A stretch of 64,000 bases of DNA, from IMG/VR virus record IMGVR_UViG_3300028048_000106, positions 1 to 64,000 of that record. One strand, given 5' to 3'. Below, piece by piece: positions 1,375 through 58,407 of the stretch (its first letter is position 1; every line of letters starts with the position of its first letter). Made by a program: the position numbers and the translations under genes. This stretch comes from a virus (Duplodnaviria; Caudoviricetes). The notes beneath the pieces were generated by a model. The model did no database searches and was not told the origin of the DNA. It worked only from the letters and a program-made list of their open reading frames with translations.

Positions 1375-2142
1375 ATGGTAAATGCAGTAATAAAAGGGAA
1401 CCAAAACACAACAAAGCTCATAAATGAGTTGAAGAAGGCGGCAAAGCAGTATCCAACATTGTCAAAAGAAGATGAAGAAGAGCTAGTGAAGACTTATGGG
1501 CATGACCGTGACAAGCTGAACAACTTGCTGTTCATGCACAACATACGTCTAGTCTTCAACATTGCAAAGAAGTACATGGGAAAGACTGATGACTTTGATG
1601 CAATGGTCCAAGATGGAATGCTTGGGCTTGCCATAGCAGCAAAGAACTTTGACATCTCACGTGGAGTGAAGTTCATAACATATGCAACACCATGGGTCAG
1701 AAAGAAGGTGCTAGAAAGGTTCTACTGCAAAGCAAATGAAGTCATAAAACGATCAGTGTCAATGAACTCGCCAGCAATGCAGTCTAGCTCAAAGATAAAT
1801 GACAGCACAGATGGAGATCTTGAGAACTATGTCAATGACTATCTAGACCCTAGTGTGTCTTCATTGAAGTCTTTCCACCAGCAACTGTCAACTAATGAGC
1901 AGAACAGACTATGCGCTGACTTGTACAATGAACTTCAACATGACAGTAGCTTGACAGATAAAGAGAAGAAGATATTCACTGACTTGTTCTACAATAGAGA
2001 AAGAGCAAAAGATGTGCAGCAGATGTATGGCGTGACATCTAAAGACATATCACAAATAAAAGAGAAGATATTGAAGAGCATGCGCAGCCGTCTTGAGTCT
2101 CAGTTTGGCATACATTCATTTTCAGACATATATGACGCATGA
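1375..2142 (+). CDS. sigma70-family RNA polymerase sigma factor (early/middle)
   Basis: Region 2: NIRLVFNIAKKY, MVQDGMLGLAIAAKNFDISRGVKFITYATPWVR; region 4 HTH; no TAG. Confidence 0.9.
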   Translation: MVNAVIKGNQNTTKLINELKKAAKQYPTLSKEDEEELVKTYGHDRDKLNNLLFMHNIRLVFNIAKKYMGKTDDFDAMVQDGMLGLAIAAKNFDISRGVKFITYATPWVRKKVLERFYCKANEVIKRSVSMNSPAMQSSSKINDSTDGDLENYVNDYLDPSVSSLKSFHQQLSTNEQNRLCADLYNELQHDSSLTDKEKKIFTDLFYNRERAKDVQQMYGVTSKDISQIKEKILKSMRSRLESQFGIHSFSDIYDA

Positions 2143-23073: not shown

Positions 23074-23103
23074 ACTATTCACACCCTAAAGGATGTGATG
23101 TTT
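23070..23103 (+). repeat. IS200/IS605-type end hairpin remnant
   Basis: GTGAACTATTCACACCCTAAAGGATGTGATGTTT; 32/34 identical to 38003-38036; related copy inverted at 63495-63521. Confidence 0.65.
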
Positions 23104-23201
23104 CTTATAGAAGAAAGTCTAAAATTAAAGAAAGATGACATAGAAAAGCTAGAAATTGTCTCTAGCTTTTATTGTCTTTTCTATATGCGTAGCATATAGA
23201 C

Positions 23202-25238
23202 ATGAGTGAGTCAATATTCAACAATGCAGTAGACTTAAGTGACATACCACAAGACCAATGGCGCAAAAACTACATTGGTCCTGGATATCGCAATGTCTTC
23301 TACACAACCAACCATGACAGAGAAGGGCGCATTGTCCTCTTTGGATTTGACTTAGCTGGAAACCCTAAGACATTCATCTGCCCATGGAAGTCACAGTTCA
23401 AGTTCCGCGTGAAGTATGACACTCCTGAGAAAGACATCTTTGGCAACTATGTTGAGACACGCTTCTTCAAGTCAAGCTATGAGCGGAAGAAGAGGCTTGA
23501 AGACATTGGACAGAGCCTTTGGATTGTTGAGTGCTTGAAGCCAGAGCAAGAGTTCTTGCAAGAGATGTTCTACAAGAACTGCCTAGATGAGTCATTCAAC
23601 ACACAGCCAATGCGCATGCAGTTCATTGACATTGAGACAGAAGTCTCAGATGTCTTCATGCGCCCATCTGATGCTGGCAACCGCATCAACATGATAACTA
23701 TCTATGACACACTCACTGAGAAGTTCTACACATGGTCACTTGAGCACGCTGACATCAAGTTCCATGATGAGTATGATGAGAATGGGCATCTTGTGTGGGA
23801 GAACCCACTGAAAGACCTTCCAAAAGACAAGTTTGAGTTCTTTGAGTTCAACAACAATGAAGAGCGTCTTCTTGAAAGCTTCTTAGACTGGATTGAAGGC
23901 AACTACCCTGACATCAGCTATGGATGGAACATAAAGGCATTCGACTGGCCATACATTGTGAGGCGCATTGAGAATGTCTTAGGGAAGAGCCATGCGGCAC
24001 GTCTGTCTCCTGTTGGCAAGTACAGGATAAAAGAAGTGAACCATGATGCACCAAAGGCAGATGTTGGTGCAGAGATAGAAGTAGACATATCTGGCTTGTT
24101 CATTGCAGATGGCCTAGTGCTGTATAGAGACAAGTTCTTGATTGCTCCTGCTCTTGATGGAGGGTACAACCTCTCAAATGTTGGTGAGCATGAAGGCCTT
24201 GGCAAGAAGATCCAATATAAAGGGACTCTCAAAGACTTGTATGTCAAAGACTACCAGAAGTTCTATGAGTACAATGTGCGAGATGTCCATTTGACTGTAG
24301 AGATTGAGAAGAAGTGCAAGCTTACAAATCTTGCAAGGAAAGTTGCAGGACGTGGACTCTGCCCTTATGGCACAATCTACTCATCAATTGCATATCTCAC
24401 TGGCTCATTGATTGCATTCTCACGAGACAAGATGGATGCAATATTCCAGTCTTACTTGAATCGGCCAAATGTCAAAGAAGAGTATGAAGGCGCGTTCGTG
24501 TTCCCTCCTGTGCAAGGTGTGTATAGAGGAGGGATTGCCTGTGTAGATTTTAATAGTTTATATCCATCAAGCATTCGAGCATCAAATATGTCTATTGAGA
24601 CATATGTGGGCAAGATATCACGGATGAATGTCTTGTTTGACAGTGCAAGCCAACGTAGAGCTTTCAACATGGAAGAGTACATTGACATCAATGATGAGAC
24701 AATTGATGACCTTTGGTTCTATCCAGCAAATGGTGGAAAAAGAAAGCAGGTGAAAAGAGAAGACATTGTCAAGCTTGTCAAGACAAAGTGCATCTACACA
24801 AGGAACAACACCCTGTTCTTGAAGCACAGTGTCAAGCAGGGTGTCATATCTGCATGGTGCAAGCACTTCTACAACTTACGCAAGGCAACTAAGAAGAAAG
24901 GCCAAGCACTTGACCTTGAGATATACAAAGGCAGCATCCCTAAAGACCAGATAGCAAAGGCAAAGCTTGATGTTGAGAACCTTGATGCTGACCAGCACTC
25001 TTTGAAGATCATGCTCAACTCAGTGTATGGCATGTTTGGCACAAACCACTCACCTATATACAGTGCACACATTGCACAGAGCATCACTCGCACTGGAAAG
25101 TTCTGTAACATAAGTGCAAGCAAGTTCATCAAGAAGAGGTTCAAAGATTTGTTTGGAATTGATGACAGCTATGCTTCAGTTGCAAGTGGAGACACTGACA
25201 GCATCACTAAAGATACTATTTTATATATAAGATCTTAA
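23202..25238 (+). CDS. family B DNA polymerase, N-terminal part, ending in 12-aa split intein N-fragment
   Basis: Exo I FIDIETE, Exo II WNIKAFD, Exo III YNVRD, motif A VDFNSLYPS, motif B KIMLNSVYG; ends GDTD-SITKDTILYIRS-TAA. Confidence 0.95.
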   Translation: MSESIFNNAVDLSDIPQDQWRKNYIGPGYRNVFYTTNHDREGRIVLFGFDLAGNPKTFICPWKSQFKFRVKYDTPEKDIFGNYVETRFFKSSYERKKRLEDIGQSLWIVECLKPEQEFLQEMFYKNCLDESFNTQPMRMQFIDIETEVSDVFMRPSDAGNRINMITIYDTLTEKFYTWSLEHADIKFHDEYDENGHLVWENPLKDLPKDKFEFFEFNNNEERLLESFLDWIEGNYPDISYGWNIKAFDWPYIVRRIENVLGKSHAARLSPVGKYRIKEVNHDAPKADVGAEIEVDISGLFIADGLVLYRDKFLIAPALDGGYNLSNVGEHEGLGKKIQYKGTLKDLYVKDYQKFYEYNVRDVHLTVEIEKKCKLTNLARKVAGRGLCPYGTIYSSIAYLTGSLIAFSRDKMDAIFQSYLNRPNVKEEYEGAFVFPPVQGVYRGGIACVDFNSLYPSSIRASNMSIETYVGKISRMNVLFDSASQRRAFNMEEYIDINDETIDDLWFYPANGGKRKQVKREDIVKLVKTKCIYTRNNTLFLKHSVKQGVISAWCKHFYNLRKATKKKGQALDLEIYKGSIPKDQIAKAKLDVENLDADQHSLKIMLNSVYGMFGTNHSPIYSAHIAQSITRTGKFCNISASKFIKKRFKDLFGIDDSYASVASGDTDSITKDTILYIRS

Positions 25239-25280: not shown

Positions 25281-27083
25281 ATGGGACAAGTATAGACAAA
25301 TATAGACTTATATTCAAAAATCAACCTTAATTGGACTCAACAAGATGAAGAGTTCTTGAAAATTGCTCTTGATGCGCATGATAAAAGTAGAATTGGATGG
25401 GTCAAATGGCTAGTAAAACATTATCCAGAAGTTGTTGATTGGTTATGGCATCGTCATCCATTATTGACAGACTCATATAACATATCAACACATCTATATT
25501 GGCTTGAGCATAAGTTTGTTGAATTTCCTAGATGCAAAGTGTGTGGAAAACCTATGTCAAAAGACATAGATTCTTTTGATGGAGGGTATTTTAGAGCATG
25601 CAATCCACTATGCGCAGCTAAAGACCCAAAAAGAAAAAAGAAGTATCAAAACACTTGTCTTGATAGATATGGATCTTCTAACTATTTAGCATCAAAAGAT
25701 GGAAAAGCAAAACGTGATCTTTGGCTTGCTTCTCAAGGAGTCACTAATGCATTTCAACTTGAATCTGTGAAAGAGAAAGCAAAGCAGTCTCGAAAAGACC
25801 ATTTTGGATATGAATTCACAATGCAAAGCCCTGAAAAAAGAAAACTCGCAAGTGACAACTACAAGAAGAAGACAGGATATGTGCATCAATTCTATGACCC
25901 AAATGTCCAAAAGAAAATCAATCAAACAAAGAAAAACACGATTGCTGCTGGAATAGATCCACGAAAGAAGTTCAAGCAAAATTGGAGAATACGACGTTAT
26001 AATAGCATTGCATCTCTTTCAACTGAAGTAGTTCCACTGTTCTCTCTTGAGCATTTTATGCAATTTGACAGAATTGGTCAATACCATGTTCTATTTGATT
26101 GGCACTGCAACAAATGTGGAAAAGACTTTAAAGCACATCTTGACCAAAATTTGATTCAACGTAGTAGATTGCCAGCTAGATGTTTGGTTTGCCATCCAAT
26201 ATCAAATGGAACATCTAGATATGAATATGAAATTACTGATTTTTTGATGAAATCTTGTGGAATAGCAGATGTAAAGATGCATGATAGAGATGTCTTGAGC
26301 CCTTATGAGATAGACATATCAGTTCCAAGCAAGAAGATTGGCTTTGAGTTTGATGGTCTATTTTTCCATTCAGAGACAAATGGAGGAAAAGACAAATCTT
26401 ACCATGTATTCAAGACTGACATGGCTAGAAAGAATGGATATCAACTATTCCACATATTTGAAGATGAATGGATAAACCATAGGCAATTGGTTGAGTCTCG
26501 TATAAGAAGTATATGCGGCAAGCCTAAAGAAAGACTTTTTGCTAGAAAATGCTGTGTTAGAGAGATTAATGACGCATGGCAAGTAAAAGATTTTTTGAAT
26601 TGCAACCATCTGCAAGGATGGTGTGCATCTAAAGTGAACTATGGCTTATTCTATGAAGGCCATCTAGTTGCAATGATGACATTTGGAAAGCCAAGATATA
26701 GCAAGTCATTTGATTGGGAACTACTTAGATATTGTTCAAAGATAGATGTGCAAGTCTTAGGAGGAGCTGGAAAGCTTCTTAGCGCTTTTGAGAAGGACTA
26801 TCATCCAAAAATGCTTTTGTCATATGCTGATAGACGATGGTCATTTGGAAAGATGTATGAGTCTCTTGGATTCTCACTAGACCATACTAGTAGTCCAAAT
26901 TATTGGTATCTTAAGACTGGCATATGCAAGAGGTTTTCACGTATTGACTTCCAAAAGCACAAGTTAAAAGACATTCTTCAAAATTTTGATTCATCACTGA
27001 CTGAAGTTGAGAATATGCGAGCAAATGGCTATGATCGAATATTTGACTGTGGAAACTTTGTATATGTAAAGCCATATGTTTAA
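25281..27083 (+). CDS. free-standing homing endonuclease (Zn fingers, PD-(D/E)XK/Vsr-like domain, Hef-like C-terminus); one TAG at codon 5
   Basis: CKVCG, CNKCG..CLVC, YEIDI..IGFEFDGLFFH, IFEDEW, SYADRRW, RIFDCG; lies between the polymerase halves. Confidence 0.85.
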
Positions 27084-27118: not shown

Positions 27119-28429
27119 ATGAATCAACAGATAAACATAGAGAGTTTATATGATAGTCTAGTAGATAAGTTTGATATAGAAAATAGAGGCTCATATGAAG
27201 TCATCTATCCAAGTGGCATTGAGATAAAAGTCTTTGGAAACAAATATGTCAAATTAGTTGCAGTCTCAAGGCATAAGACTTCTAAGCATATTGTTGAGGT
27301 GTCAGTTGTGTCTTCAAAAGGAATTGACAAAGTCAAAGTGACAACTGATCATATTTGCATGGTGTACAATGATGACCATTTCTTTGAGAATGTTGATGCA
27401 AAGAACTTGAAAGTTGGCAACTATGTGTCTGTATATGACAGTGAAAAAGACATTGAATTAGTTGGGACAATATCTAGTCTAGTTGATTTGGGGCAAATTG
27501 ATGAGTGGGTGTATGACTGTGAAGTAAATGACAATATGCACGCATTCTATGCAAATGATATTCTTGTGCACAACTCACAGTTTGTGAACATAGAGTGTGT
27601 GACAGATGACTTCAAGAAGAAGTATAGCCTTGGAGGCAACTTGGCAAAGTGGGATGATGAGAGCAAGCTCAAGCTTTGGAAGTGGGTAGACAACTTTGTT
27701 GAGACAGAAGTCAATCCATTCGTGCAGAATGACTTGATTGGCAAGACATACTGCACTGAGCATCCAGAAGTGCTGCGCTACTCACTTGAGTATGTTGGCG
27801 CTGTTGGCATCTATGAGAGGAAGAAGCACTATGCTGTCCACAAGATACTGTCAGAAGGGCCAGAGATTGTTGACAAAGTCAAGTTCTCAGGCATTGAGCT
27901 CAAGAAGGCATCTACTCCAGCTACTGTGAAAGACATCCTTCGTGACATATACTTAGGTGTCCTCAAAGAAGACTGGACTGAGCACCAGTTCATTGAGTAT
28001 GTCAATGCAGCATATGAGAAGTTCAAGACGCTCACGATCTCAGACATTGCAATGTGGAAAGGGTACAACACGGCCCGAGAAGCTGTTGGGTTCTTAGACA
28101 TGGAGACTGGTGCAACAGGCATATCAAAGGCATGCACATACTACAACCAAATGGTAGACCACTTGAAGATTGGCAAGAAGTATGACACGATCTTGCTTGG
28201 CCAAAAAGTGCGTTTTGCATATGTCATCCCTTCAAATGAATATGGCATTGAGTGCATTGCATTCCATGATGGGCAGTGGCCAATTGAGTTTGACAGCATA
28301 TTCAAAGTTGACTATGATGTGATGTTTGACAAGATGGTCTTGTCACCATTGAAAGGGTTCTTAGAGGCGACAAAGTTCAAGAAAGTTGACCCTAGGAAGC
28401 AAGTTGTGTTTGACATATTCGACTTATGA
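27119..28429 (+). CDS. split intein C-fragment (152 aa) fused to PolB C-terminal part
   Basis: INIESLYD, block B VTTDH, block F WVYDCEV, block G ILVHN/S; extein SQFVN..KKHYA..FSGIELKK. Confidence 0.95.
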   Translation: MNQQINIESLYDSLVDKFDIENRGSYEVIYPSGIEIKVFGNKYVKLVAVSRHKTSKHIVEVSVVSSKGIDKVKVTTDHICMVYNDDHFFENVDAKNLKVGNYVSVYDSEKDIELVGTISSLVDLGQIDEWVYDCEVNDNMHAFYANDILVHNSQFVNIECVTDDFKKKYSLGGNLAKWDDESKLKLWKWVDNFVETEVNPFVQNDLIGKTYCTEHPEVLRYSLEYVGAVGIYERKKHYAVHKILSEGPEIVDKVKFSGIELKKASTPATVKDILRDIYLGVLKEDWTEHQFIEYVNAAYEKFKTLTISDIAMWKGYNTAREAVGFLDMETGATGISKACTYYNQMVDHLKIGKKYDTILLGQKVRFAYVIPSNEYGIECIAFHDGQWPIEFDSIFKVDYDVMFDKMVLSPLKGFLEATKFKKVDPRKQVVFDIFDL

Positions 28430-34487: not shown

Positions 34488-36317
34488 ATGGCACTGAATT
34501 GGAATCCTTTTAGAAGACGGACATCTGACTAGACAAGCTAGAACATCTAGAACAACCCTAACTACTAGACATTTGCCTAGGTGAACTAGGACATTCAAGC
34601 AATTGTCAATGCAAAGTCAGTTGTGTCAACTGCAGCAAAAGACTAGAACAGAAGATTTGCAAACCCTTCTTGGCAGACATTCTTTGATGGTGAGATACTT
34701 GCACTTCCTCTAGCAACAAACAAGTCTGAGCGGATTGACTAGTATAGACGCATCTCAAAGTACAACATCTGTGATTGGTGCTTTGATGAGATTGCAGATG
34801 ACTTCATACATGAAGATGAGAATGGTGACATAGTGAAGCTGTCTGTCCCTGACAGACTGTCAACAATGCAGAAAGACATTCTGCAGAATGAGTTCAACAA
34901 GTTCATGAACTTGTTCAAGATAAAAGAAGACGGCTACAACTTGATAAAGCGCTTCTTGACTGAAGGAGAGCTTGCGTGGGAGAATGTCATCAGTCCAGCC
35001 CACCCAGAGATGGGCATAATTGGAGTGAAGTTCTTGCCGGCTGAGTACTATGAGACATTGATTGACACATCAACAGCTCGACCTGTTGGCATTGTCTTTG
35101 ATGTTGGGTCATTTGCTGATGAGACACGGCAGATGTACAGGAACTCTTTTCAAGGAGCAGCATCTATATTCAATGCGGTGTATCCAACACAGTACAAGTT
35201 CACTTTCTCAAAAGACACATGCATACCACTGCTGTACAGCCAGATAACATACATAAACTCAGGTGAGTACTCACATGACTTCTTGATAACTTATCCATTG
35301 ATTGAGAAGGCAAAGCAAGCATACTACAAGCTAGCATTGCTTGAAGATGCTGCTGTGACTCTACGTGTGACTCGTGCTCCTGAAAGACTGCTGTTCAATG
35401 TGTCTACTGGAAGACTTGACTAGAATAGAGCAGATGAGTATGTCAGACGGTTTGCAAACAGCTTGCACTCAAAGAAAGTTGCTGCAAATGGTGGGCAAGA
35501 CATTGTCAGCACATATTCACCAATCACAATGTTGAAGTCATATATCTTTGGCAAGTCATCTGACTCAGAAGGGACAACTGTAGAGTCTGTTGGCTCATCA
35601 GCTGACTATGACTAGCTTGCTGACATTGAGTACTTCTTGAGAGCATTCTTGAAGATGTTCAAGGTGCCATTCTCTCGCTACAAGACACCAGAGAACACAA
35701 TTGAGAAGAATGATGCTATACCATATGAAGAGTACTCATTCAGCCGTATGATAATGCGCTTCTAGAGAAGATTTGCAGAAGGCTTCAAACGCGGATTCAT
35801 AACACACTTGAAGCTTCGTGGACTTTGGGACAAGAAAGACTATGGACTAAAAGACTCTGACCTGCAAGTCAACTTCACTGCACCTGTCCTCTATGACTTG
35901 TATGAGAAGTAGAAGTTGACAGAGGCAAAGATGGCAATCTACAAAGCTTTCACTGACAATGATGAGATGTCTAAGTCACTGTGCATGAAGAAGTACTTAG
36001 GCTGGTCAGATGAAGAGATAAAAGAGAACTACATGTCATTGATACTTGACAAGCAGTGGACTGCTGTTGCTGACATGATGAGCGAGCGCATATCAGATGA
36101 GAACCCACCCGTTGACATAGAGTCTCCTATGAAGTTGAAGAATGACGTTGACAAGCTAGAGAAGAGCATAGGAGGCTAGGACAATGCCAATAGCGAAGAG
36201 CCATCTAGTGGAGAAGCAGAAGGTGGAGAAGAGGCAGAGTCAAGTGAAGAGCCATCTAGTGAAGAGAAAGAAGAGCCAGCAAAAGAGGCTGAGACTCCAA
36301 CGTTTGGCCTTGGCTAA
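34488..36317 (+). CDS. portal protein (T4 gp20-like), TAG-recoded
   Basis: YRRIS..FDEIAD, LLEDAAVTLRVTRAPERLLFNVSTG, DIEYF..FKVPFSR; continuous frame to TAA 36317. Confidence 0.93.
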
Positions 36318-36607: not shown

Positions 36608-37273
36608 TCATTCACTTTTGCTTTGGCTGTCTAGTATCTTAGTTATCTAGTCTACACTCCAGTTTTTCTTTGATGTCTCAATTGCATCAGCATCTATGCT
36701 TTTAGGGCCTTCTTTTGCCAACATCAACTCTTTCTACAAGTCAGCTTTGTACCGTAGAAGCTCTTTCTTCTACTCTTTGTCAAATATTGCAAACTTGACT
36801 TTGTCTACAAAGTTCTACTTGTCACGATAGACTCCTATGAACTCAGCTATGCTTATGTGGATGCTCTCTACAAGCTTGCTGTATGCCTAGACTGCTTCAG
36901 AGTCTATCAAGGGTGTTGCCAGAATGCTTGAATGGACGTGCCTTATGACATCTTTAGACAAGTCAATGATATCTTCTAGCTCCTTTAGAGAATGGTCCAT
37001 TGACACCATCTGCACAGACAGCTCTGACATAGGCATAGACATGCACGTTGGCATAGCTGATATCTCAGCCATCTTGTCATGCATGTCTTGCTCTATAGAT
37101 GACAACTAGTCAATTGCTGACAATGCAGCATCTTTAGTTGGCACTGCGCTACTGAGAGAAAGACTGTCTAGAAAAGTGTCAATGTCTTGTCCACCAGTTA
37201 TCCCAAACACAGCATCAAGCTTCTCTTGCTGTGTTGCAATGTGTGGAGTGCTCTATCTACTGTTGTCAGTCAT
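36608..37273 (-). CDS. hypothetical protein, possible terminase small subunit (TAG-recoded)
   Basis: Continuous frame; helical core LEDIIDLSKDVI..DSEAVQAYSKLV resembles T4-like gp16. Confidence 0.45.
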
Positions 37274-37913
37274 TCTATGATCCACTCATTGAGTCATCAG
37301 AGCCAATGTACTGCCTAATGTAGTTGTTCAAGCTTGACTTAGGGTCAATCCCTTGATATGTCTCAAGCTCTGACAACAGCTGCTTCATGACTTCTTTTCT
37401 TATGTTCTACTGCTTGTAGTGCTTTGTTATAGTTGATATGTATGCATTCCAAGCACATGTACTGAAGTATGCAAATGGATTGTTGAACTCAAAGTTGTAG
37501 TTCTTGAGGCCTTTTATTGCTTTCACAAAGAAGAACCCCTTTGCATCTTCTTTCAACTCTTTAGAGTAGTTTCTGAACTCACTTCGATTGAGCATCTTGT
37601 CAGCAATTGCCATAAGCATCCTGCCAAGCTCTTCTGACAGGATGCGGTCTTCTACTTTCTTAGCTGAGTCACGCCACTTGACTAACTCTGCATGTAGTTC
37701 AGCTGATGTGCAGTAGAACCTCTCTTTGTTCTTTGGCTCAAGCTCTCCTGCTGCAGCTTTCTTAGCTTGTCTTTCTCTCTATATCTTCAGCTTTATGGCT
37801 TGTTTTTCAGCAAGTGTCAACTTCTTTGGCTGTTCTTTTTTCTACTTCTACTATTGCTTCTAAGTCTTCTTTGTAGACACATCAATAGTCTACTGCTTCA
37901 TCATTGCACACAT
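37266..37913 (-). CDS. late-transcription sigma factor (T4 gp55-like), TAG-recoded
   Basis: FYCTSAEL..KW, LGRMLMAIA..FRNYS..AIKGLKNYN..NPFAYFSTCAWNAY; eight TAG, six in the first 45 codons. Confidence 0.9.
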
Positions 37914-38002
37914 ATATTGTCTTTCTTTGATTTAAAGGTATAAAGGTATATACTTATATAGAGATATTGTACACCGCTTTTGGCTATCTCTAGATTTTTT
38001 TT

Positions 38003-38104
38003 GTGAACTAGTCACACCCTAAAGGACGTGATGTTTTTTGCCTAAGTGAACTCTATACTTAGCTAAAGACTGAGCATCTTTCTTGCTTGCCTAAAAGTAA
38101 ATAA
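38003..38104 (+). mobile_element. non-autonomous IS200/IS605-like end remnants: two tandem GTGAACT-hairpin(CTAAAG loop) units
   Basis: First unit matches 23070-23103; 3' part TGAGCATCTTTCTTGCTTGCCTA is identical to 22226-22248. Confidence 0.55.
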
Positions 38105-38136: not shown

Positions 38137-39396
38137 ATGGTAGACATCCGCAATGAGATAGACAAGATTGTCTTAGTAGAGTCATTTTCATCAAAGAAGC
38201 CACACATTTTCAATGATGACAAGACAACATTCAAGCAGTTGAAAGACTTGTTCACTAGCATATTTGACTCACGAGTCATAAAGTTCTCAAGAAAAGTCCC
38301 TAAACTAGACGCATATTTGACTGTCAAAGATGGCAATTGGTTTGTGTCATCTTACCTTAGGCCAGAGCAGCAGTACCCTATTGGCAATGCCTCAAAGCTG
38401 CATGAGTCTGATGCTGACTCAAAAGATGCTGTCTAGAAGACATTTGACAGCATTGTTGAGTCACTTCAGTCTATTGACCCTGTGCTATTGAACAGGTTCT
38501 TTGCAAATGGCAGCAACCGCCTGCACATACTGCTAGTGTGCCCACCAGATGGATGCTCTAAGCTGTATGGTGGAAAGTGCTTCACAGAGTATGGTGGCAT
38601 TGACTGCTTCAATGATGGCAAATGCGTAGGTGATGACAAGAAGTCTAGCTTTGAGCTGTATAAGATATTGAAAGCTTGCCCAACACTGAAGTGCGAGTTT
38701 GCTGAGTTGACACCTGAACAGCTCACTGCAATAAAGTGCTGCAAAGATGAGAGAGCCATTCTAAAGCAGCTAGTTGACTAGTTGGCAAGACTAGTTGACG
38801 GCATTGGCTGGGGATGCTCAATACGTGACTATGTGCAAGACCGCTACTCTCGCTATCTAGTCAACAAAGCGCTTGAGCACAATCTTGATGTGTCAAAGAA
38901 AGGAGCACTTGTTGATGAGCTTACATCTCGTCTAAGTGGGACATCAACTCTTAGGCCAACTAAGTCTGACCTCGCAACATTTGCAAAACGTGAAGGGATT
39001 GATGTCAAGTCAGACGACTACAAGGCGTTTCTTGATGACATTGAGCAGAATGCGGCAATGACAAACAAAGACATCATGTCTCCAATTGAGAATGCAATAT
39101 ACTTTGCAGTGTCAAACATTGTCCAAGCACTGCTAAGCTACATCAGTCTTGACCCTAACCCAAAGGCAAAGAAGCTTGCACAGTAGACAGCAAGAGACTT
39201 GTTTGCTGCATGTGACTCTATTGAGAAGTGCTCTTTTGACAGCAGCAAGCTAGATGGAATGAAGAAAGCTCTTGCAAAGCTGTGCTCTTACAAAGAGTTT
39301 GCTCCAAAAGAAGTCAGGTTTGTCAACAATGGCATTCCATACACTGTGGCATGCGAATGTGAGAAGCTTGATGCAATGTGCAAGACAATTGCTTGA
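38137..39396 (+). CDS. hypothetical late protein (TAG-recoded)
   Basis: Four code-11 ORFs in one frame joined by TAGs; GTAAATA at 38097. Confidence 0.8.
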
Positions 39397-41447: not shown

Positions 41448-41496
41448 GCAGCTATGAAAGTACAATATCTTCATCTACATAGATGAGGATATTTGC

Positions 41497-45948: not shown

Positions 45949-46527
45949 TCATGCTAGCTCTTGTTTTGTCAAGCCAAATACTTCTTCTATGCATTTGCAC
46001 GCTGCAAATGCTTTTCTTGTCTTTCCAGTCTTACGAGTCTTAAAGCACTACTAAGGGCAACCACATTTCTAGAAGAAGTCTTTTGGAATGGTCTTCACAA
46101 TGTATGTGCCAGTCTTCTAGTATACCCATTTCTAGTTCAATGAGAATGATCTACCACCATCAGACTTCTAGAATGTCCCTTTCACATCTAGATACACCTA
46201 GAATGTGCTGCTCTACAATGCATGATGTGGCAGCTTAAACTCTTTAGCTAGTGTCTAGTAAGCTCTAGCTTTGACAACAACTAAGAAGTCTGGACTATAG
46301 ACATGCTCACGTAGAAGTGACTTCTTCTTTCCATCTAGTGCTATGAAGTCAACTGCGTCAAACAACTTTATAGAAGGTGGCTAGTACTAGAAGTCTTCTA
46401 CTAAGCCAAGCTAAGCAGCTTCTACACACCATTCAAGAAAGTCGCATTCTTCAATGGAGTCCATCATCAAGTCTACACCATGAAATGCATCTCTATATGG
46501 AAACTGTCTTCTGTTGTTTCTTCCCAT
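45949..46527 (-). CDS. PD-(D/E)XK nuclease, DUF1064-like (TAG-rich)
   Basis: DSIEE, F(TAG)Y(TAG)P, HVYSPDF, VYLDVKG; continuous to TGA 45949. Confidence 0.7.
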
Positions 46528-46529
46528 TG

Positions 46530-47231
46530 TCACTCCTCTATGCCAAGCGCTGCATCTAGATAGTCTTTTACTTCTAGAGCACATCTTTTGAATGAAGCAC
46601 TTTTGTTCATCCTACTTTTGTTGTTGACATATTTTGATATCAAGTCATTGATGGCCACAATGTTCTGCTGTTGACTAGAGAATATGTCTTTCCACATATT
46701 ACGGCAGTTACTGCTGCCATATGCCCACTTTATTGTCTTGAACAGCATGTAGCAGTCAAGTCTAGAATGCGATGCAAAGATGACTTTTGGCTACTGCGCT
46801 CGACATCTCTTGCGGGTCTCTCTATTGAAATAACCATTGAAGACATCTATGAAAAGCTCATTCATCAAGTCTATGTCAATTTCAATGTCTGTCTCAGACA
46901 ATAGCCATTTCAAGCTTGGCCTATTCTCTATAAGACTAGCTAGCTTGCGTGGAAAATACTTGTCATCTTTGAAGTCTAGCAGTAGATTGTCTTTAGGGTA
47001 GCATGACCCTATAACAATCATGGAGTCATGTTGGTCTTCTAGTTTAGAGACAGCACATTGTATGCTGTCATCTATGCAGTTTTTGACTATGCTGCGCAGT
47101 CGCTGCTTAGAAGCGCTTAGACTAAGAATGTATCTACCATTCTCACGCTAGAAGAAGTCTTCACAACAAGCAACAATCTTCTCAATTGCAGCATCAAGAA
47201 GGCACTTGTAGTATATGAGATTCAGCTTCAC
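46530..47231 (-). CDS. hypothetical protein (TAG-recoded)
   Basis: GTG 47231 overlaps the upstream TGA; joins two code-11 ORFs. Confidence 0.65.
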
Positions 47232-51758: not shown

Positions 51759-52718
51759 TCATCTTTCCATCCATTTTGCAATGGCTGTCAGCAAGCCAAA
51801 GAAGCCACTCTCTTTGTCAATGACAGTGTTCAACTGGAACAGCAGGTCTGTCATCTTTAGTATTCCATCTAAGTCAACAACAATGCCAGTGTCAACAACA
51901 TGCTTGTACAATGCACTTCCAAACTCAACATAGTCACTTATCTTGTCTTTCTCAGACAGATAGAACTTCCTGACTTCAAGCATGCTTCTAGTTGTCTTGA
52001 GCTTGTCAACAATGGCATCTAGCAGCTCATTCTTCTCAGACTCAGCAACTTTGTTGAGATTGACAACAAGCTCTCCTGTTGTGCAGCAGAACTGCAGGTA
52101 GTTGATGATTCTTCTGACATCTGGATAGTACTGGAAAGCTTCTTCAATGAAAGCTTTCACTGAGTCTCTTGTGTACTTGATGCCTTCACTGTCAAGGATC
52201 TTCTTGACATGGATGAGAAGGTCTTTCTTGTCAAACTTGAGAGGGATGACTGGGCAACGAGACAGAAGAGGGGCAATTATCTTCTGCAAAAAGTTCCCAG
52301 TTATCAAGAACCGCGTGTCATCTTGTGCAGCCTCAATCAATGTCCTAAGCGCTTGCTGGAAGTTGTTGCCTCCTCCTGCACTCGCTGAGTCTACTTCATC
52401 AAGTATGACAACTTTTATCTTGCCTTCCATTGACAATGCATTGCAGAAGTCTTGGATCTTTGTCCTAAGGACATCAACGGTGCCATCTGTTGCACAAGGC
52501 ACAAACAGCACTTGTGCATCAAGCTCATTGCACAGTATCTTTGCAAGTGTTGTCTTTCCTGACCCTGCTACTCCAATGAGGCTTAAGTTCTGAAGTGACT
52601 TCTTGTCAATCATTGACTTGAAGTACTTCTTTATGTCTTCACCCAAGACATACTCACTAAGGCACTTAGGGCGGTACTTGTCTACCCAAAGCTCTGTCAA
52701 TGTGCTATTGTCTTCCAT
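51759..52718 (-). CDS. clamp loader large subunit (gp44/RFC)
   Basis: WVDKYRP, GVAGSGKTT, VILDEVD, LLSRC, PDVRR. Confidence 0.93.
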   Translation of the reverse strand: MEDNSTLTELWVDKYRPKCLSEYVLGEDIKKYFKSMIDKKSLQNLSLIGVAGSGKTTLAKILCNELDAQVLFVPCATDGTVDVLRTKIQDFCNALSMEGKIKVVILDEVDSASAGGGNNFQQALRTLIEAAQDDTRFLITGNFLQKIIAPLLSRCPVIPLKFDKKDLLIHVKKILDSEGIKYTRDSVKAFIEEAFQYYPDVRRIINYLQFCCTTGELVVNLNKVAESEKNELLDAIVDKLKTTRSMLEVRKFYLSEKDKISDYVEFGSALYKHVVDTGIVVDLDGILKMTDLLFQLNTVIDKESGFFGLLTAIAKWMER

Positions 52719-58113: not shown

Positions 58114-58368
58114 TCATAGACTAATGCTTCCAAGCTATAAGTTTCTATATACTGTTCTGCAGCTTGGATATGCATAGCTATGCTGTGGCTGCCAATGATT
58201 GAATGGCACCCCATAGTCATATACACTTTTGAGATGGCTATACTCATCCCTAGTGATGATGCACTCAATGCCAATAAGGTCACATTTCATTCTAAACTCA
58301 TCATATGTTGATGTGCTTCTCAATGCATCTACCATTGCATCTATGTCATAGTCTACGCCATCTTCCAT
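58114..58368 (-). CDS. small hypothetical protein
   Basis: ATG 6 nt after TACAAT; TAG at 58135, next TGA at 58114. Confidence 0.55.
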
Positions 58369-58407
58369 AGAGATATTGTACTGCCAAAAAAGTAAATATT
58401 GACTACC

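Follow-up and report, generated by a model that had tools for sequence, protein, structure and literature searches.

The linear viral contig IMGVR_UViG_3300028048_000106 carries a gene that, judged by its sequence, is that of a late sigma factor of the T4 gp55 type, and from which the standard genetic code would yield no whole protein. The gene occupies positions 37266..37913, on the minus strand, of the window, by which we mean the first 64 kb (64,000 nucleotides) of the contig; the contig itself is 92,187 bp long and is estimated to be 34% complete. The reading frame is open only when TAG serves as a sense codon, and with TAG read as glutamine (Gln) it specifies 215 amino acids and ends at a TGA stop. 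Very likely, synthesis of this late sigma factor has to wait until amber suppression, the decoding of TAG as an amino acid, is on. We favor a passive explanation for this dependence, to which we give a probability of about 0.7: gp55 would be needed only after the switch in genetic code, so that TAG is tolerated in its gene, which is written in a 'late dialect'.

The assignment to the gp55 family comes from profile comparisons. The protein matches PHROG 234, 'late sigma transcription factor', over residues 61-188 (E=1.3e-18), and a profile built from 18 family members matches T4 gp55 itself (PDB 7d7c chain F, E=3.2e-13), the aligned stretch running over profile positions 59-163 and T4 residues 9-118. 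As the alignment runs from profile position 59 onward, about 57 residues form an N-terminal extension relative to the T4 protein. The Pfam Sigma70_r2 model gave a match below the cut-off (E=0.034), and no match to region 4 was found. An AlphaFold2 model of moderate quality (mean predicted local distance difference test score, pLDDT, 62.9) is all-helical from residue 34 on. The extension is clade-specific and consists of a disordered tail rich in Lys, Gln and Thr followed by a conserved basic helix: residues 1-29 are predicted to be disordered (pLDDT below 50) and are poorly conserved, while residues 31-62 form a block conserved across the family, in which a helix is modelled at 34-54 with a pLDDT of about 70. 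The gp55 homologues L009 and L040 carry an insertion of ~90-115 residues after the first helix of the sigma core.

Eight in-frame TAGs interrupt the gene, at codons 8, 18, 21, 22, 24, 45, 169 and 213, alongside nine Gln codons of the CAR type (CAA or CAG). A preliminary description of this DNA, made from the letters alone, had drawn attention to six TAGs in the first 45 codons (37779..37913, minus strand), including the run TAG TAG AAG TAG, and this arrangement is as it was reported; the run spans codons 21-24, and the leader TAGs lie at 37892-37890, 37862-37860, 37853-37848, 37844-37842 and 37781-37779. The same description placed the whole cluster ahead of the conserved domain. That is correct for the five TAGs of the variable disordered tail but not for codon 45, which sits inside the conserved helix block in a nearly invariant Gln column. 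Across 44 relatives the codon at this position is TAG in 14, CAG in 13 and CAA in nine, a mixture from which it is directly evident that TAG stands for Gln. The seventh TAG, codon 169 (37407..37409, minus strand), falls within the sigma domain, in a column where relatives use TAG, CAA, CAG or Ile codons, and the last, codon 213 (37275..37277, minus strand), is three codons ahead of the TGA stop.

Whether the standard code could give a working protein depends on where translation starts. The N-terminus MCAMMK is common to close relatives, which fixes the start position, and the plausible initiation codons M1, M4 and M5 are all upstream of the TAGs. The frame then offers no ATG, GTG or TTG from codon 45 until codon 99. 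Two internal starts were considered and set aside: a start at codon 99 would remove the part aligned to T4 gp55 residues 9 to about 45, and TTG codon 32 is not conserved, being TTG or ATG in 14 of 44 relatives. A true start downstream of the cluster, giving an active sigma factor under the standard code, had been named as one observation that would refute the interpretation in the preliminary description; we found none. Because the usable starts precede the leader TAGs, with one more TAG within the sigma domain and another beyond it, a full-length sigma factor can be expected only while TAG means Gln.

The same dependence runs through the family. A search of IMG/VR with the single gp55-type protein found no close relatives, and a search with the family alignment reached five loci in IMG/VR and 44 in metagenomes. 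The family comprises 252 homologues, and DNA was recovered for 47 distinct sequences. TAG is present in 42 of these 47, which, together with the lack of starts between codons 45 and 99 and the TAG in the sigma domain, bears out the earlier statement that the late sigma factor needs TAG to be decoded. All but one of the 42 TAG-bearing homologues (41/42) have at least one TAG within the N-terminal ~80 residues, and 34 have TAG within the conserved block. The five TAG-free homologues comprise four without the extension (L044, L045, L047 and L048) and one with it (L039); at the loci of L044, L045 and L048, coding density is no higher under code 15 than under the standard code. The preliminary description had asked whether relatives using code 15 keep a TAG-dense leader that relatives using code 11 lack. 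Density varies, with anywhere from 1 to 6 leader TAGs per relative. A dense leader is retained in the nearest relatives alone: two at 87-88% identity have six each, partly at different codons, and another has four, against a single TAG in a relative of 83% identity on a 395-kb contig and 1-5 in the others.

Does such persistence call for selection? With ~6 Gln codons per leader and a TAG share of 40%, only ~2 of 42 leaders would be expected to be free of TAG by chance, so the near-universal occurrence of leader TAGs requires no selection for a gate.

The gp55-type gene falls squarely among the code-dependent genes of the contig. We called genes with a codon-usage score of our own, taking TAA and TGA as stops, and they fall into two sets. 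The TAG-free set holds 57 genes with no TAG against 402 CAA or CAG codons, and the TAG-bearing set holds 40 genes with at least two TAGs, in which 242 TAG stand against 310 CAA or CAG, a share of 44% (242/552). Genes that seemed to carry a single TAG near codons 3-18 proved to have over-extended starts. The TAG-free set includes genes for nucleotide metabolism and replication (a split family B DNA polymerase, PolB; thymidylate synthase and kinase; an IMPDH-like dehydrogenase; the clamp loader; and RNase H) as well as genes for a PARP-like protein, DnaK, DnaJ and a sigma70-like factor. Portal, terminase, tail tube, glycosyltransferase and gp55 belong to the TAG-bearing set. The functional division between the two sets is that of early and late genes, as expected for a recoded phage. 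Strong selection against TAG, typical of the early set, is absent from gp55, which suggests that gp55 is not needed before TAG is decoded.

The sigma70-like gene (1375..2142, plus strand; PHROG 351, E=1.9e-29; Pfam Sigma70_r2, E=8.5e-15) is, as the preliminary description had it, free of TAG, with 12 CAA or CAG codons. Two homologues of it were reached in relatives, and none was found in the scan of viral contigs. One of the two, L060 (G001:C1:19391-20155, minus strand), has a single TAG, six codons before its TAA; it looks as if TAG still acted as the stop for the early gene and gave a short read-through tail later.

Sense TAGs on the contig also have a preferred neighbor. Of 226 sense TAGs, 121 (54%) are followed by A; for the CAA or CAG codons of the genes that hold them the figure is 71 of 273 (26%), which gives an odds ratio of 3.3 (p=4e-10). 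G is depleted after TAG. Within the gp55-type gene, A follows seven of the eight TAGs. This context may reflect selection for efficient read-through.

The preliminary description had gone further and taken the TAG-dense leader to be a master gate, in which an early mRNA would wait for strong suppression to be translated, clustered TAGs would sharpen the threshold, and the whole would form a coherent feed-forward AND gate. Spelled out, this model has a leader shaped by selection and a host-type promoter. The composition of the leader argues against a special device. Six of its 11 Gln codons are TAG, as expected from the 44% share of the TAG-bearing class (binomial p=0.55). Six or more TAGs per 45 codons occur in 31 of 10,671 windows of TAG-bearing genes, spread over three genes: the gp55-type gene; the portal gene (34488..36317, plus strand; PHROG 213, E=1.2e-73), which has 13 TAGs, seven of them within 45 codons from codon 9; and a gene at 45949-46584, with six TAGs within 45 codons. 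By TAG density per codon, the gp55-type gene (0.037) is tied for fifth among the 40 TAG-bearing genes. A crowding of TAG toward the 5' end is likewise a mild and general trait of late genes: in the other TAG-bearing genes of the contig the TAG share is 60% in the first 50 codons and 42% beyond (p=0.002), and in the late genes of relatives (loci L002-L006 and L056-L058) it is 54% and 43% (p=0.04).

Nor does clustering by itself create a threshold. For a read-through efficiency p, the full-length yield of a gene with n TAGs scales as p^n, so a steep dependence on suppression is common to all TAG-rich late genes, portal and terminase with 13 TAGs each among them, and clustering adds nothing to the exponent. 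That steepness is not conserved either, given the single leader TAG of the 83%-identical relative and the overall range of one to six. On these grounds the leader cluster is not supported as a purpose-built threshold lock and is better described as a disordered tail that is rich in Gln and has the usual share of TAG; the would-be gating codons are neither conserved nor enriched beyond the background of comparable genes.

Several observations weigh against the favored explanation. Family-wide, the TAG share of Gln codons falls from 51% in the variable tail to 34% in the conserved block and 15.5% in the sigma core (leader versus core, Fisher p=4e-9 for sequences that are related and hence not independent), so that the leader's share is two to three times that of the sigma domain. 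In G002, a lightly recoded relative with an overall TAG share of 3.7%, gp55 ranks first among 43 genes in TAG density, with three TAGs against five CAR codons (p=0.003). Membership of the two gene sets also drifts among relatives, the PARP-like gene having 10 TAGs in L002 (6811-8085) and PolB six in L005 (14589-17468), and 'TAG-bearing' is therefore no rigid equivalent of 'late'; the PARP-like gene is TAG-free on this contig, in L003 and in L006. A second late sigma gene free of TAG could, moreover, lie in the remaining two thirds of the genome. Finally, the agent that would decode TAG did not turn up: the 92-kb contig and two related fragments (all 24-43% complete) gave no tRNA in ARAGORN, the Rfam tRNA model found none on G001, and a suppressor tRNA is absent from the 92-kb contig (34% complete) and from a 105-kb relative (43% complete). 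Since every piece scanned is a fragment, these negatives are uninformative.

The gradient from tail to core and the case of G002 speak for a selected leader, and a master gate can further claim the N-terminal TAGs of 41 of 42 recoded homologues, the six, six and four kept by the nearest relatives on partly different codons, and the A that follows seven of eight TAGs, a context favored at sense TAGs genome-wide. Early termination in the tail would also spare the cell truncated sigma fragments. On the other side, the family-wide TAG share in gp55 is 29% (136/465), compared with 46% in the neighboring late genes of the same relatives; measured against that 46%, it is the core that is TAG-poor, and the leader is not TAG-rich. 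One reading of this pattern is that termination in the sigma core is costly, as it would leave a truncated sigma factor, and cheap in the tail. The TAG density of gp55 is average in G001 and far below that of its neighbors in L002, and preferential recoding of gp55, true in G002, fails as a general rule in G001, in L002 and in the present genome. With leader TAGs at the late-gene share, equal or denser clusters in two other genes and a promoter that, as described below, need not be early-only, we hold a selected master gate to be unlikely.

A related reading deserves separate mention. Selection might keep N-terminal TAGs throughout a clade of amber-recoded T4-like jumbo phages as a translational checkpoint placed early in the frame, in which failed read-through would release only harmless short peptides and late transcription would be held downstream of the code switch. 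If so, the switch would act twice, once on synthesis of the late sigma factor and again on every late mRNA. We consider this a tentative possibility and a doubtful one.

The timing of the gp55 transcript was part of the master-gate proposal, and it turns on the sequence upstream of the gene. The hexamer TACAAT is where it had been reported (37966..37971, minus strand, 52 nt from the ATG); it resembles a -10 element and forms part of a 15-nt motif, GTACAATATCTCTAT. A scan for sigma70-type promoters on the gene's strand found no -35/-10 pair upstream, leaving TACAAT without a -35 partner, and the bare hexamer is mildly enriched between genes (11 of 62 copies).

A second element is much more strongly tied to intergenic DNA. 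GTAAATA is the strongest oriented intergenic 7-mer: intergenic DNA, 6.6% of the contig, holds 16 of the 21 copies, and each of these faces a start within 80 nt. It precedes 11 TAG-bearing and four TAG-free genes (odds ratio 5.9, p=0.003), and thus behaves like a real promoter element tied to TAG-bearing genes. The late promoter of T4 is TATAAATA, and by likeness to it GTAAATA may be a gp55-dependent promoter.

The gp55-type gene had been described as having no adjacent GTAAATA. No exact copy occurs in its orientation in the 223-nt spacer, and the copy at 38097..38103 (plus strand) faces the divergent gene 38137-39396. There is, however, a one-mismatch version, GTATATA, at 37947..37953 (minus strand), 12 nt past TACAAT and 33 nt before the ATG, and it occupies the site at which relatives have GTAAATA. 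In L057, a close relative, the same place reads TACATT, 12 nt, GTAAATA. At least 15 relatives, L057, L058 and L003 among them, have GTAAATA 17-35 nt before the gp55 start, usually preceded at a variable distance (4-18 nt) by a box resembling TATAAT or TACAAT, and GTATATA is found at the matching place in L056 and L012 as it is here. The gp55-type gene most likely has two upstream elements, which makes it unsafe to reason from the absence of a late box to early-only expression. The proposal that the mRNA is made early, resting as it did on a lone -10-like hexamer, is accordingly weak.

The same box allows for the opposite timing, in which gp55 is itself late and auto-activated: the GTAAATA-type element would be its working promoter once a small priming amount of the protein is present, and the TAGs would reflect late expression. 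The exact GTAAATA in at least 15 relatives, the GTATATA here, in L056 and in L012, and the variable distance to the companion box, which fits two independent promoter elements, are in keeping with such a loop. GTATATA is not enriched between genes (two of five copies), though, and GTAAATA is only putatively read by gp55. A first source of the protein would still be needed, which the upstream -10-like box could supply, so that auto-activation overlaps with the passive explanation and does not replace it. As an account in its own right we find it quite improbable.

Under the passive explanation, infection would most likely proceed in five steps. Genes compatible with the standard code would be expressed early, among them those for the sigma70-like factor, replication, nucleotide metabolism and chaperones, all of which avoid TAG. 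Amber suppression would then come on, through an agent not seen on the fragment examined. Next, gp55 would be made, GTAAATA-type late promoters would fire, and in the end the TAG-rich late mRNAs would be translated.

This order presupposes that the two gene sets have to do with timing. They might not: suppression could operate throughout infection, supplied by the host or a co-infecting phage, with TAG avoidance a matter of gene origin, expression level or accuracy and the TAGs of gp55 free of any regulatory effect. The fragments scanned hold no suppressor tRNA, about 40% of recoded jumbo phages lack one in a published survey (PMC13037316), and the PARP-like and PolB genes change sets between relatives, all of which would suit such a view. 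The split is nonetheless absolute on this contig (no TAG among 402 Gln codons) and follows classic early and late functions; the L060 homologue of the sigma70-like gene carries its TAG just ahead of TAA, as if TAG were still a stop; and the pattern matches the model that Borges et al. (bioRxiv 10.1101/2021.08.26.457843) put forward for recoded phages. We therefore judge a split unrelated to timing to be highly improbable.

The genomic setting is that of a large T4-like phage. Relatives of the gp55-type gene sit on contigs of 277-432 kb, indicating that the present contig is a piece of a jumbo phage. A comparison of DNA with phage GenBank records gave no match to it. It has a T4-type portal, large terminase, tail tube, family B DNA polymerase, clamp-loader-like ATPase (an AAA+ gene at 51759-52718) and RNase H. 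Two further components of T4 late transcription, the co-activator gp33 and the sliding clamp, were not found on this ~34% complete fragment; the sliding clamp model PF02916, which gave no match, was silent on control genomes too. The DNA polymerase is divided between two open reading frames, with a gene for a 600-amino-acid HNH/homing endonuclease between them (window 23172-25238, 25281-27083 and 27119-28429).

Directly downstream of gp55 lies a gene at 36608..37273 (minus strand), of 221 amino acids from the ATG at 37273 and with seven TAGs, whose start overlaps the gp55 stop (ATGACTGA). It adjoins gp55 in every examined relative with matching gene order. Pfam gave no hit for it and PHROG only a weak one, to family 9704, whose function is unknown; we regard the gene as a candidate partner in late transcription.

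Two further motifs were noted in the intergenic regions. Copies of GTACAATATCTCTAT occur at window positions 37957-37972 and 58366-58381 and at contig positions ~70927-70942, all on the minus strand, upstream of gp55 and of two other genes, and a close variant at 41460-41474 (plus strand) precedes a TAG-free epimerase-like gene. The motif is found before TAG-bearing and TAG-free genes alike. Its recurrence suggests a distinct class of promoter or operator. An imperfect palindrome of ~20 bp, CAC(A/G)TCCTTTAGGGTGTGA, appears in four intergenic regions, three of which are divergent promoter regions and include the one upstream of gp55; it lies at window positions 38011-38030 and 23078-23097, with similar sequences upstream of 63599 and in the contig spacer 70922-71077. 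The palindrome could serve as a binding site for a regulator or form an RNA hairpin.

Stop-codon recoding in phages has so far been viewed as holding back the translation of structural and lysis genes. Were the late sigma factor itself dependent on the code, the code switch would also control the onset of late transcription, which would link the two main timing layers of infection in uncultured giant phages. The claim has its limit in the leader, where amino-acid composition and ordinary codon usage account for the eye-catching TAG cluster. Within that limit, the dependence of the late sigma factor on amber read-through is real and clade-wide, and it constitutes a modest and apparently undescribed variant of the recoding model.

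Among known systems, the closest in its parts is T4. The protein shows clear homology to T4 gp55 (PDB 7d7c/7d7d; PHROG 234) over the sigma core, and like it is small; its model, of moderate quality, appears all-helical, and it gave no match to region 4. The genome shares with T4 the portal type, the clamp loader and RNase H, and GTAAATA, its putative late box, is similar to TATAAATA, the late promoter of T4. Unlike T4 gp55, the present protein has the ~57-residue N-terminal extension, and its gene uses eight TAGs as sense codons.

In its use of the code, the contig resembles phages from the gut and rumen in which an early/late code split has been described and a temporal switch proposed (Borges et al., bioRxiv 10.1101/2021.08.26.457843): TAG is Gln, the early genes can be read in the standard code, and structural and packaging genes are full of TAGs. 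Stop recoding is also known from the Lak megaphages (PMC6784885), and code 15 has been proven by proteomics (PMC9523058). In the Borges model, recoding provides post-transcriptional control of late and lysis genes (10.1101/2021.08.26.457843). The case described here differs in that the late-class transcription factor itself is code-dependent, which would place the switch ahead of late transcription as well. That preprint (10.1101/2021.08.26.457843) mentions sigma factors not once, a 2026 survey of jumbo phages does not mention sigma, and a literature search for gp55 or late sigma factors together with alternative genetic codes found no paper combining both, in agreement with the earlier impression that the layout had not been described.

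Two older systems offer parallels for the logic itself. In T4, late transcription becomes conditional on amber suppression when laboratory strains with an amber codon in gene 55 are grown on suppressor hosts. Those strains are engineered conditional lethals; the present arrangement occurs in nature, takes in several codons and is found repeatedly within a clade. In Streptomyces, the bldA tRNA(Leu-UUA) reads a TTA codon in adpA, so that a specially supplied tRNA gates a master regulator of transcription. As in the bldA/adpA pair, the decoding agent in our phage would gate a programme of transcription, and the genes under its control may contain the same codon. Streptomyces, by comparison, uses a rare sense codon in the service of bacterial development, and there the single codon is conserved and experimentally limiting.

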